From NCBI RefSeq assembly GCF_058153355.1, contig NZ_CM177019.1: DNA of 64,000 nucleotides; one strand, given 5' to 3'. The position numbers are program-made. Of the stretch, positions 49,101-61,100 are shown piece by piece. Each line of letters opens with the position of its first letter. Position 1 is the stretch's first letter.

Positions 49101-52100
49101 AAAGACAATGATTTATGGTCAAATGTTTTGCTTCACGACCCTCGTTTGCTCAATGTAAAAAATGAATTTAATACTATCAGTGCGATGCGTACTTCTGCGT
49201 AAGAACGAAGAGAAATTGCCCTGCTGATGCAGGGCAATTTAGTAGTTATTTCGTTAAAAATATCTCACACACAAACCAGAAGACTTTCCTGATCCTGGTG
49301 TTGATATACCAGTTTCAGGATTGAATTTCTCGTGAACCCCTATAAGTACAGTACTTGTCCAGTAATCCGTACTGCTAAATGTACTGCCATAAGCTTTCAA
49401 ATTACCATATTCTCCCCACAACGTACCTACTTTTCGTGGAACTACACCACTACTTGGTCGCTGCGCTAATTCTAAAGATGACGCCACTTGTCCATAGCTA
49501 TTGCATGATGCATTTATAATATCCCAAGTGTTATTACTGGCAGCACCTAAACTAGTAAACCATTTTTTCATCTTGAATTTGAATACAACATTATTCCCTT
49601 TACCATCTTTTGGTTTCCCGGTAATAGTGATTTCACTATTTAGGGGCAGACTTATTGTGACTTCTCCATTATTGTTAACATTAATACCATAGATGCCTGC
49701 CGTCCAATCATAATCTGTATTCTTCATATTATGGGTTAATACTAAGGTGAATTTAGCCCCATCAAATCCTGTTTCAGGAAAACCATCTGCCGCCCTGAAT
49801 ATTGCACCATTCACACTCAGTGAATCGACTGCCACAAAAGGAAGGATGGTATAGGAAGGTTGCCCGTTTACACGCCAACCGTTAATCTGCAGAAATGAAT
49901 TTAAGTTCTCTCCTTCTTTGTAGGCCATATAGGTACGCTCATATATGCCATCACCCAAATATATCCATTTAGCCCCTTCTTTCTTCTCCACATTTTGTAA
50001 GTACACTGCATTATCCAGCAAATCCAGACCGTTATCCAACGGGTTACCAAAATCATCAGCTAATAAAACACTGACAGGTAAATCCGCCCCAACAACCACA
50101 ACATCATCTCTTATACGAAGCTGTGAACCATGCGGACTCGCTTCACCCGGTTTAATAGTATAATTATTTGAATAATTGGCATCGCTCCAACCAACCATCT
50201 TCAGTTGTGCATTCAAATTCACTTCCGCGAAATGCGCCATATACTGTCTTTGATATTGCCCATTGCCGTTGTATATCCAATTATTACCCTGGATAGGATC
50301 TGCATTCCTGACTTTTACGTTTTCCTCATTAAGCTGAGCGACACCATCAGTAATAAAGTTACCCTGAGCATCACTAAGTACAACAGTCACCGTTATGCTC
50401 TCCCCAGCGATATATACCGTTTTGTCCGTGATAATCGTGGACTGAGTTTTTGCTGCTGCACCTGGTTGTATCCCGTATAGCGCGGAATCAATCTCCGTTG
50501 CCCATGTTTTTAATTTCAGACTGGCAACCAAATTTTTCTCGGCAAACCATGCTGTCCAGATCATGGTATATTCACCATTATTCTGTTCGACCCATTGCAT
50601 CGAATCGGGGACTGCGCCGCCCACCGTAAAATTATCGATATATGATTCGATAACTCCTGATGTCAGCCCTAAAGCCGGGTTACCAAACTCATCCCGCAAC
50701 GTTACTGTGACAGTTAATGACTCCCCGGCGATATATGTCGTTTTATCTGTCCTGATGGCTGAATTTGTTTGCACCGGAGCACCACTGTGGATGGAATAAC
50801 TCTCTGATTGTTTACTGCTGCCCCACTCAGGCAAAGTCAACGTCGCGTGGTGAGAGTCTCCCGCCATTTGCGCCGACCATGTAGCAGTATAAACACCGGC
50901 GGTTTCAGACCATCCTCCTGAACGTACGGCTCCTTCCACTATTACGTTATCACCAGACAGTAAGGACTCGCCCCCTTCAACCAGGTTACCGTGCGCGTCT
51001 TTCAGCGTCACGGCGACGGTTATAGTGTCGCCAGCGGTGTAGGCGTTTTTATCCGTAGCGATAGTTGATGTGGCTTGCGCCGGAGAACCGGACTGTATGT
51101 CATAGCGATCTGACGTTACACCATCACTCCACGTCTGCAATTGCAGGTTGGCGTGCTGATTGGTACTGGCAATCGTCGCCATACGGGTTGTGGTATACAC
51201 GCCACCTGATTCAATCCAGCTTCCCGTTTCTGACGGGTCGGTGCCAGCCACCGTAAGCACACCATTAGCTGCTAACTGTGAAGCTGCACCGGTTACCAGA
51301 TTATCGAACACATCCCGGAGCGTTACCGTGATGGTGATTGTCTCTCCAACCGTATAGTTCGACTTATTTGTTTCAACGGTTGAAGTGAGCTGCGATGCAT
51401 CACCCGGTACAAAGGTGATGCTCTGACTCTGGCTGCTACCGTTAATGCTGGCAGTGACCGTACTGGCTCCGGCGGTCTGGCTGGTGACGGTGATTATTGC
51501 CGCGCCGTCCGGCCCGGTGATAACCGTCGCGGCAACCGCTGCCCCGTTGTCCGCTGAGACGCTGACCGTCTGTCCGGCCAGCGCATTGCCGAACGCGTCG
51601 GTGACTTTCACCCGCAGCGTGTTCGCCGTCGAACCGTCTGCCACTGAGCCGTCCTTAATGACCACCAGATCCACGATCTTCGCGGTGCTGACATCAGCAA
51701 TAAACGTCACGTTCTGGCTCAGAGTGCTGTTGTTGATGGTTGCGGTAACTGTACTGATGCCCGCCGTCTGGCTGGTGACGGAGATTTCCACGGTGCCGTC
51801 CGGCCCGGTGATAACCGTCGCGGCAACCGCTGCACCGTTGTCCGCTGAGACGCTGACCGTCTGTCCGGCCAGCGCATTGCCGAACGCGTCGGTGACTTTC
51901 ACCCGCAGCGTGTTCGCCGTCGAACCGTCTGCCACTGAGCCGTCCTTAATGACCACCAGATCCGCGATCTTCGCGGTGCTGACATCCGGGATAAATGTCA
52001 CGTTCTGGTTCAGAGTGCTGTTGTTGATGCTGGCGGCAACGGCACTGATGCCCGCCGTCTGGCTGGTGACGGTGATTATTGCCGCGCCGTCCGGCCCGGT

Positions 52101-58100: not shown

Positions 58101-61100
58101 CTGCGCAGATGCAGAAGAAGCCACCCAGCCACGCGCCATACTCGCAGCCTGTTCGCTGTCCATATCGCGCGCTAAAAGTGTTCCGCTTTGCTGCGCCACT
58201 TCCGCGACCTGCATTTGCGGATCTTTGCCGTCGCGCTCCATCTGCATTGCTTTCAGGTTGCGCGCTTCAGGGCTGTTACTGTTAATGAGGGGCACATCTA
58301 TTTCATCGCCCTGACGCACATTGTCAAAGCCCCGCGCAAAAGTACGGAACTGATTCAGGCGACGTAATTCATCAACGGTAATACCAAAGCGTGCCGCGAC
58401 CGTTGGTGGCGATTCCAACGCCCCCAGGGTGTATGGAATAGTTTTAACGTTCGACAGGATCAGTGACGCGGCAGTATCCGAATGCGCAGGGTTAACATGC
58501 GTAGGGGCAGCAGCCATAACAGGGAAAATAGTTTGTGTTATCAGGCAAATACCGGCGGTCAGACGACGTAAACGATCCCCCAATCCACATATGGTTTTAT
58601 CGCCCCGACGATCGCCATTCCCATGCGCTTTCCCTGCCATTTGTCATCCCTGTCGCTATGCGTTCAGATTAAATGACCTTTCTTTAACATGAGGGAAAAT
58701 GATGATTCATGATTAGCAAATGATGAATACAGGCGGAATAATGGAAATAACAACAAGATAAGAACAATACCTGATCAAGGGTTATCAGGGGGAAGAACAG
58801 GAGAGCTTTCCCGCCAGAGCAGTAACCCCTCCTGTAAATACGTTACTTCATTTTCACCTTTGCGGTGACCAATAACGCCGTCAGCAACATCAATGTGCCG
58901 GACAACATCAACGGCGAAGTCAGACCAATATTATCCAGCGCATAACCGCCGATTGCCGCGCCACAGGTATTAGCAAGCTGAATAACCGCCACCTGAATAG
59001 ACCCGGCTTTTTCTGCCTGATCGGCCAGTGAGCGGGTGATCCACGTTGACCAGCCGACAGGAACCAATGCAAAAGTTAGCCCCCAGATAATCGCCACGCC
59101 GGTAGCAACGATTTTATCGCTTCCCCACAACGTCAGCACCAACGCACTCACAGCCAGTATTAACGGCGCGCCTGCTAAGGCCAGTTTTACCGAACGTTTA
59201 AGAATGAACGACGAAAGCGACGTACCAATAAAGCTGGCGATACCAAAACTCAACAGCACCAGAGTTAAGCCATCCACGCCGAATCCCGCCAGGTTCATAT
59301 ACACCGGGCGAATATACGTGAAGAAAGCAAACTGCCCGGCGAAAGACATGAAGATGGCGATCATCCCTGCCATCACACCCGGACGTTGTAATAAGCGGAA
59401 AGTATTTTGTTTCTGATGCGAGGGTTCGCCTGGCAGCGAAGGCAATGATTTGATAATCCAGAAAATACACAGCACGCCCATCACCGCCGCCGCATTAAAG
59501 ACATTGCGCCAACCGATAAGCTCGCCTAAAAAACTGCCCAACGGTGCGGCAATCACCAGCGCAATAGAAACCGCGCCGAAGATCACCGACAGCGCCTTCG
59601 GCACCGTACGCGGCGGCACCAGACGCATGGTCAGCGACGCCGACATCGCCCAGAACCCGCCCAGCGCCAGTCCCAGACAGGCACGACCGATTAAAAGCAA
59701 ACTGAATGAGTTAGCAAAGGAAACCAGCAAGCAGGAGAGCGTCAGCAAAACGGCAAACAAAATAACAACGTAGCGGCGGTCAGTGGCCTGAATTGTCTGG
59801 GTAATAAACAAACTGGCAAACATTGCCACAAAGGCGGTCACGGTCACCGATTGCCCGGCAACCCCTTCCGAAATGCCTAAATCCTGGGCCATTGGCGTCA
59901 ACAAACTGACGGGCAAAAACTCAACGATAATCAGACAGGCGACGCAAAACGCCACCGAGAAAACGGCTGACCAGTTCGGTCGGGTGATGGCATCCGCGCC
60001 GCGGTTTTCGGCAATAAATTCACTCATGGTGTTACCCGTGGCATGTTTCAGAGGAAAAGCCGACCACTTTAACACTGAAATGTGTGACACATTTAACGTT
60101 TTTGCAACTTTTACGGTGTTGTGGGAAAAGTTCGAGGCTGCTCGAAGAAATAAAAATCATAGGGCAAGCTGATATGCATTTTCGCGATTGGGTTGGGAAT
60201 AAGGGATAAAGTATTGCACTTGGTGATATACTTTAATAACAGGACCTCAACGATATGCGCGTGTTTAAAACCAAATGGTTTGCAAGGGAAGCCAGGTCTC
60301 ATGCAATAACAGATGAAGAGTTGTGCCGGGCCATTTTAGAAACGGAGCAAGGTAAAGCTGATGCACTTGGTGGTGGCGTTTTTAAAAAGCGCCTTCACCA
60401 AAATCGTGAGCGTGCAATTATTCTGGCAAAAGGGGGAAGTAATTGGTTTTACACGTTTTTATATGCAAAACAGGATATGTCGAACATCAATAGTCAGGAA
60501 CTGGCTGGGTTTCGTGAACTTGCAAAGCATTATGCCTTCCTGACGAAAGCCCAACTAACAGCAATGATTAACACTAAAGAACTGACAGAGATCTGCTATG
60601 ACTGCAAAAACTAAATTTAAAAGTCCTGCATTTGAGGCTATTCACAGCGCAGCTGCTGGATTGTCCAGCGTCGATGCTATTTCTGCCGAAACGATGCGTA
60701 CTTTTGACAAAGCCTGCCTGACCAGCGTGCAAGACTTACAACCTGTTGAGATAAAAGCACTGCGGGAAAAATTAAAAGTGAGTCAGCCCGTCTTCGCTCA
60801 CTATCTCAATACCAGCGTTTCAACTGTACAAAAATGGGAAAGTGGCGCTAAACGCCCCAATGGCATTTCATTAAAACTGCTCAGCATTGTGCAAAAACAC
60901 GGGCTGGAGGTGCTGCTGTAAATAGAACGTAGATAATGCGTTCACCTACTGTCAGTTCCGATGCCGGATGCGGCGTGCACGCCTTATCCACCCACCAGCT
61001 CAGGCGCGGTCTGTAGGCTAATAAGACGAAACGGTTTTAATGCAGCCAGTGAACGCCCTCAGCAGGCTGAAAGAATGCGTTATAGCGCATCTGAAAAGCA

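Follow-up and report, generated by a model that had tools for sequence, protein, structure and literature searches.

The DNA analysed here, a stretch of 64,000 nucleotides (nt) from contig NZ_CM177019.1 of assembly GCF_058153355.1 (hereafter the window), carries one very large gene between eilA and nepI. It is a single ATG-started frame of 9387 nt on the minus strand, which encodes 3128 amino acids (aa) plus the stop codon and has no internal stop, according to the list of open reading frames (ORFs) and the translation. The first-pass annotation had placed a 3128-aa protein of the intimin/invasin family here, and its coordinates, 49254-58640, proved exact. An open frame of 9.4 kb in DNA of about 49% GC cannot have arisen by chance, and its start codon is identical to the one chosen by the Prokaryotic Genome Annotation Pipeline in strain EC42405. 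We are highly confident that the gene is an intact, long allele of iatC, also called air and eaeX, which encodes a large type Ve inverse autotransporter adhesin and belongs to the eip (selC-B) island. The gene is already described and experimentally studied, and is not new; that it carried three names in the literature was overlooked by the first-pass annotation.

Identity of the gene

The NCBIfam model NF040978, an equivalog-domain model of the IatC N-terminus, matched the protein with 3070.4 bits, above its curated cutoff of 2400, and profile positions 1-1065 of 1065 were covered. In a pairwise comparison with IatC from strain SMS-3-5, identity was 96% across the first 1159 aa of the window protein and 82% across its last 188 aa. 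The PCR primers for air match the gene at 56695-56714 (two mismatches) and 57275-57294 (none), predicting a product of 600 bp; both the primers and the 600-bp amplicon were published by Boisen et al. 2012 (PMC3256949). When the 5' end of the gene, together with its junction to nepI, was searched as a 1.9-kb query, 757 of the 5426 complete E. coli genomes gave a match, always on the chromosome. The genes overlying these matches are annotated as 'inverse autotransporter adhesin IatC' or 'EaeX/Air' and have nepI as their neighbour. None of the 5426 genomes searched was identical to the window. As the NF040978 score, the identity to SMS-3-5, the primer fit and the RefSeq label all agree, a single locus underlies the names iatC, air and eaeX.

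Goh et al. 2019 (PMC6714894) gave IatC its name and characterised it, with the protein of SMS-3-5 as type (EcSMS35_4024; 2934 aa by their count). In enteroaggregative E. coli (EAEC) 042 the locus goes by the name Air or EaeX (Sheikh et al. 2006, cited in PMC7058095 and PMC4210603). Both genes occupy the same eilA-nepI locus and share the domain order of the window allele. The 2019 paper on IatC (PMC6714894) does not mention Air, EaeX or EilA. In RefSeq the SMS-3-5 type gene is now labelled 'EaeX/Air'. Across RefSeq genomes the locus appears as iatC, air, 'EaeX/Air', 'invasin', 'Ig-like domain-containing protein' or 'hypothetical protein'. The value of the present identification is mainly one of annotation housekeeping: air, a standard marker for virulence typing in E. 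coli, and IatC, an inverse autotransporter that is already characterised, are recognised as the same gene.

Two other candidates were rejected. YeeJ was excluded by the locus and by the NCBIfam results. A match to TIGR04134 (radical-SAM-associated lipoprotein), in which no single stretch passes alone, was read as generic similarity between Ig repeats.

Table 1. Features of the iatC gene, its product and the surrounding locus (coordinates in the window)
Feature	Coordinates	Strand	Basis
iatC/air/eaeX coding sequence, 3128 aa + stop	49254..58640	-	ORF list, translation, NF040978
N-terminal extension, presumed signal peptide, aa 1-65	58446..58640	-	basic stretch then hydrophobic run LTAGICLITQTIFPVMAAA, by eye in translation
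Divergent, putatively periplasmic LysM-like domain, aa ~66-118	58287..58445	-	marginal Pfam match, motif conservation, AlphaFold2 and Foldseek
Inverse-autotransporter beta-barrel translocator, aa 149-423	57372..58196	-	PF11924, 4E1T, 4E1S
Seven proximal Ig-like domains, aa 451-1150	55191..57290	-	Pfam, phmmer self-comparison, alignment to intimin positions 171-546
Tandem array of 13 Big_1 units, aa 1151-2411	51408..55190	-	TRF, unit comparison
Five distal divergent long-class Ig-like domains, aa 2412-2940	49821..51407	-	phmmer self-hits 1e-5 to 1e-15; weak Pfam Invasin_D3
Invasin-D4-like Ig domain, aa 2941-3017	49590..49820	-	Pfam PF21764 E=1.3e-12; aligns to 1CWV
C-type-lectin-like tip domain, aa 3018-3128, with Cys3046 and Cys3124	49257..49589	-	phmmer 1CWV, AlphaFold2, Foldseek
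Hairpin with 12-bp stem between the convergent eilA and iatC stops	49213..49240	both	terminator scan, 0.3 expected by chance
AT-rich nepI-iatC intergenic region, presumed promoter/regulatory region	58641..58842	-	sequence
eilA, HilA-like regulator	47505..49202	+	NCBIfam NF009037, 950 bits vs cutoff 589
Rest of eip (selC-B) island, GC 35-40%	42145..47117	+	NCBIfam, annotation in EC42405 and 2020CK-00188
nepI, upstream of iatC	58843-60090		NCBIfam
tRNA-SeC (selC)	37567-37661

Domain architecture

From the sequence, the first-pass annotation had read the protein as a LysM-like module, a beta-barrel, more than 20 Ig-like repeats and a lectin-like tip with conserved Cys spacing, and each of these elements was recovered, the LysM module being the weakest point. 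The domain scan that it had proposed detected IAT_beta, Big_1, Invasin_D3 and Invasin_D4, with LysM marginal and the tip (aa 3018-3128) lacking any Pfam match. The modelling of the terminal domains, likewise proposed there, gave a LysM-like core at the N-terminus and an invasin-like tip at the C-terminus. The short motifs that had been quoted are present at aa 274 (EYWRDY), 306 (RPANGWD), 331 (YEQYYGD) and 414 (SRYDLVDRNNNIVLEYRK), the last one (aa 414-431) spanning the C-terminal end of the barrel into the linker.

The presumed signal peptide resembles the long signal peptides of the inverse autotransporter family. For the domain that follows it, Pfam LysM gave only E=0.04-0.62 on the window protein; in 13 of 16 homologous N-termini LysM was found at E<=0.1, the best one reaching 7e-5. 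Within this domain lies an insert with an invariant LNQFRTFARGF motif. The AlphaFold2 core adopts a beta-alpha-alpha-[insert]-beta fold (predicted local distance difference test, pLDDT, 71-87). With this core, Foldseek retrieved almost exclusively LysM domains, among them the isolated LysM 5K2L (target-normalised template modelling score, TM, 0.83), and intimin 2MPW was also listed. These results point to a divergent LysM, for which peptidoglycan binding is predicted. The barrel gave E=2e-108 for Pfam PF11924 (IAT_beta), E=1e-80 for the invasin barrel (PDB 4E1T) and E=3e-67 for that of intimin (4E1S), and it lies N-terminal to the passenger, as type Ve requires.

Pfam and phmmer self-comparison map 26 Ig-like domains in total: seven proximal, 13 tandem, five distal and one D4-like. 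The proximal ones comprise one D00-like, one Invasin_D3-like, three long-class and two Big_1-class domains. In the tandem array TRF found a period of 291 nt, 12.9 copies and 89% matches. Its units are exactly 97 aa (291 nt) long, and identity between them ranges over 70-95% at the protein level and 77-97% at the DNA level. Blocks of identity are shifted between neighbouring units, a pattern in the repeat sequences that suggests unequal crossing-over.

The last 188 residues (aa 2941-3128) align to invasin D4-D5 (1CWV) with a phmmer E=6e-22. An AlphaFold2 model of the last 190 aa was obtained with pLDDT 95.8 and a predicted TM-score of 0.90, and the best Foldseek match was again invasin 1CWV (E=1.6e-15, TM 0.83, 30% identity), followed by intimin (3NCX, 1F00, 2ZQK). 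According to this model, the tip together with the D4-like domain is predicted to be an Ig plus C-type-lectin-like cap, best matching invasin D4-D5. An exhaustive search of representative proteins (50%-identity clusters) returned 333 sequences at E<=0.001, and 42 sequences from it were aligned; this alignment served as the input for the tip model. Cys3046 and Cys3124 align to the invasin disulfide C907-C982 and are conserved in 39-40 of the 42 homologues. In invasin, D911 (in D5) is critical for integrin binding and D811 (in D4) acts in synergy with it. In the 42-sequence alignment D911 aligns to Gly3050, in a gapped loop, and D811 to Ala2951, with Asp2952 adjacent.

Yersinia pseudotuberculosis invasin (1CWV passenger, 4E1T barrel) has a similar barrel, the same superdomain of Ig and C-type-lectin-like domain (CTLD), and the disulfide, but it has four Ig-like domains instead of 26 and, to our knowledge, no LysM module. 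Intimin (Eae), from enteropathogenic and enterohaemorrhagic E. coli, shares the LysM-like module, the barrel, the D00-like first Ig domain and a CTLD tip. However, its tip is only 14-15% identical to that of the window protein in structure comparison, its stalk is much shorter, and its equivalog model NF033627 scored 420 bits against a cutoff of 1400. The Tir and locus of enterocyte effacement context of intimin is not present within the window.

Length and allelic variation

In the genomes examined, stalk length differs between strains by the copy number of the 291-nt unit, 13 here and 5-14 elsewhere. TRF counted 5.0 copies in SCU-172, 11.0 in SMS-3-5, 12.9 in the window and 14.0 in 2020CK-00188. 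Gene lengths in about 35 genomes form a 291-nt ladder of 7056, 7347, 7638, 8511, 8802, 9093, 9387 and 9678 nt. SMS-3-5 IatC has 11 units and 2933 aa, compared with 13 units and 3128 aa in the window allele, which exceeds the range of 2459-2965 aa published in 2019 (PMC6714894). Goh et al. 2019 reported no evidence of variation in tandem-repeat number in IatC (PMC6714894), and Fox et al. 2020 reported variable numbers of Big repeats in EaeX (PMC7058095). As it was already in Fox et al. 2020, this variation is not new. For typing and assembly of the locus, repeat-driven length variation and occasional apparent frameshifts are to be expected.

The nearest genome at the 5' end of the gene is EC42405, with 100% identity over 1.9 kb and about 97% over a 12.6-kb alignment running from the array to beyond nepI (window 51422-64000). 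The nearest intact allele, with 14 units and a tip identical to that of the window, is in 2020CK-00188. This tip allele is rare: at >=95% identity it was present in 10 of the 5426 complete genomes, isolated from humans, cattle, goat, pig and food, and the distal allele of most genomes is about 85-87% identical to it. We compared the window allele with that of SCU-172, which has the common tip class. The rate of synonymous change (dS) was 0.10 for the translocator and reached 0.55-0.67 in the D4-like domain and CTLD, with 0.27-0.67 across 49254-50780, while the ratio of nonsynonymous to synonymous change (dN/dS) stayed at 0.06-0.28 along the gene. On these substitution rates, the distal end would fit an old recombined allele under purifying selection, and not rapid positive selection.

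Composition along the gene

For the translocator and the proximal Ig domains, the GC content at third codon positions (GC3) lies at 0.45-0.62. Values of 0.73-0.79 are confined to the 13 tandem units, with sharp borders, and the array has an overall GC of 62%. Distal to the array, GC3 drops from 0.51 to 0.27 at the lectin-like tip, where it resembles the 35-40% GC of the adjoining eip and eilA genes. We found no description of such GC3 mosaicism within iatC in the papers on the gene that we consulted.

GC-biased gene conversion and a mosaic origin are both possibilities for the step at the array. The flanking Ig domains, of the same fold, show GC3 of about 0.5. Gene conversion, if it is the cause, would be driven by frequent recombination within the array. 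We can only speculate, and hold it to be rather unlikely, that the array-confined step is a footprint of GC-biased gene conversion and that the rare distal allele binds a different receptor or host than the common one. Should the former be true, iatC would be a natural within-gene test of GC-biased gene conversion in E. coli; should the latter, distal iatC alleles would differ in ligand as intimin subtypes do.

The eilA-iatC-nepI locus

The window carries, in order, eicA-like, eipB-like and eipD-like genes, eilA, iatC and nepI, eilA being convergent with iatC. The genes 5' of eilA encode a SycD/LcrH-type chaperone, a YopB/SseC-like translocator, a 373-aa ORF and an IpaD/SipD-like tip protein. 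The 373-aa ORF (44684-45805, plus strand) matched no NCBIfam family and is hypothetical in related genomes; by its position it may be a SipC/IpaC-like second translocator. The order eilA-iatC-nepI is also annotated in EC42405, 2020CK-00188, SMS-3-5 and SCU-172. The gene order of the window agrees with that of the selC-B island in PMC7058095, and the eip island is known in EAEC 042 and in strains of sequence type 69 (PMC7058095; PMC4210603). The hairpin between the two convergent genes is, from its sequence, a candidate bidirectional terminator, and a weak terminator-like hairpin follows nepI (58789-58770).

In SCU-172 (locus 1-1449) eilA is disrupted by IS1A and the adjoining iatC, with five units (7056 nt), is intact. 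This strain would be a natural test of the dependence of iatC on EilA.

Discussion

By analogy with the intimin/invasin family, we propose that IatC is exported across the inner membrane by Sec and that its N-terminal LysM-like module would contact peptidoglycan in the periplasm. Residues ~149-423 would insert in the outer membrane as a 12-stranded barrel. The C-terminal passenger would then be threaded through this barrel and fold outside as a rod of 26 Ig-like domains, capped by the disulfide-bonded C-type-lectin-like domain. The five-domain rod of invasin measures roughly 18 nm. Scaled from it, at ~3.6 nm per domain, the IatC rod would be ~100 nm long, its length being set by the copy number of the 291-nt tandem unit. 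Such a rod could hold the tip beyond the layer of lipopolysaccharide and capsule and thereby promote surface attachment and biofilm. Expression of iatC is probably under the adjacent HilA-like EilA, and the gene would presumably be expressed in the source strain.

The probable role in adhesion and biofilm, also put forward in the first-pass annotation, agrees with published experiments on iatC/eaeX (PMC6714894; PMC7058095). IatC of SMS-3-5 is surface-located and gives strong biofilm on overexpression (PMC6714894). In EAEC 042, eaeX and eilA mutants showed reduced epithelial adherence and biofilm, and EilA modulates eaeX expression and controls the eip genes, according to Sheikh et al. 2006 as cited in PMC7058095 and PMC4210603. 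Several points weigh against this picture. Overexpressed SMS-3-5 IatC neither caused autoaggregation nor bound extracellular-matrix proteins (PMC6714894). The role in adherence rests on a single EAEC strain, and the phenotypes, known from papers, come from the SMS-3-5 and EAEC 042 alleles and not from the strain of the window, whose tip is only 82% identical to that of the experimentally tested IatC. A simple scan for promoters upstream of iatC turned up no sigma-70 consensus on the minus strand. As to the integrity of the gene, the exact copy number in the 3.8-kb array, with units 77-97% identical, depends on assembly quality. Some genomes have the gene split, as in the related strain EC42405, where it is annotated as two overlapping coding sequences (1470 and 1755 aa; locus 11965-21641).

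This split bears on whether the locus is decaying or mis-assembled, so that the open frame and its 13 units would be artefactual, or the gene silent and becoming a pseudogene. EC42405 lacks a single base within the ADGAMANT codons of one repeat unit, at a site that is not a homopolymer; this may be a real mutation, making a pseudogene, or a sequencing or assembly error. The frameshift was located by reading frames; the arrays of EC42405 and 2020CK-00188 are mutually rearranged and their global MAFFT alignment was uninformative. The high DNA identity of the units (up to 97%) invites the same suspicion, and Goh et al. warn of misassembly in such repeats (PMC6714894). Moreover, about 6 of the roughly 60 records listed are annotated as 'Ig-like domain-containing protein', 'hypothetical protein' and the like, suggesting disruption. 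Against decay or mis-assembly, the frame in the window is open across all 9387 nt, the nearest allele has 14 units, an identical tip and no disruption, annotated genomes include intact alleles of 5, 11 and 14 units, and the low dN/dS against SCU-172 indicates purifying selection. We therefore think that there is only a small chance of an artefactual or silent gene.

The resemblance of the tip to Yersinia invasin D4-D5, its nearest structural relative, could also mean that the protein is an invasin-type invasion protein that binds beta1 integrins, and the match to 1CWV in sequence and fold and the conserved disulfide cysteines speak for it. However, the integrin-binding Asp pair is not conserved, and an invasin-like integrin mechanism is unlikely for this reason. 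In addition, the sole invasin-named match, the Cronobacter Inv N-terminal model NF040980, reached 265 bits against a cutoff of 710, and the failure of overexpressed IatC to bind matrix proteins points the same way, so that we consider an integrin-binding invasin very improbable. It is harder still to believe that the gene encodes another E. coli inverse autotransporter (YeeJ, IatD, FdeC or intimin), for which we see scarcely any chance. YeeJ and IatD do share the plan of LysM, barrel, Big_1 array and CTLD and the biofilm on overexpression (PMC6714894), but they occupy other conserved chromosomal loci and no sequence match at the level of IatC was found for them. The only model above its cutoff is that of IatC, and the models of intimin, Ilp, YrIlm, SinH (322 bits against 999), YchO (270 against 508) and Cronobacter Inv are all far below theirs. 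Finally, every inverse autotransporter has its own conserved locus (PMC6714894), and here the locus is eilA-nepI. An intact, long iatC allele thus remains the reading that we favour.

Other features of the window

Antisense to the GC-rich array there are two plus-strand ORFs, 51445-52887 (480 aa) and 52897-54390 (497 aa), which are most likely stop-poor antisense frames and not genes. Beyond nepI, two overlapping small ORFs on the plus strand (60255-60921) are annotated in EC42405 and SMS-3-5 as a RelE/ParE-family toxin and a helix-turn-helix protein; the pair is likely a type II toxin-antitoxin system. At the other end of the locus, setC (38301-39485) begins within ~640 nt of tRNA-SeC and, because setC is so near, the window has little or no selC-A insertion. 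A RhuM pseudogene fragment annotated in EC42405 maps to ~37740-37900 of the window.

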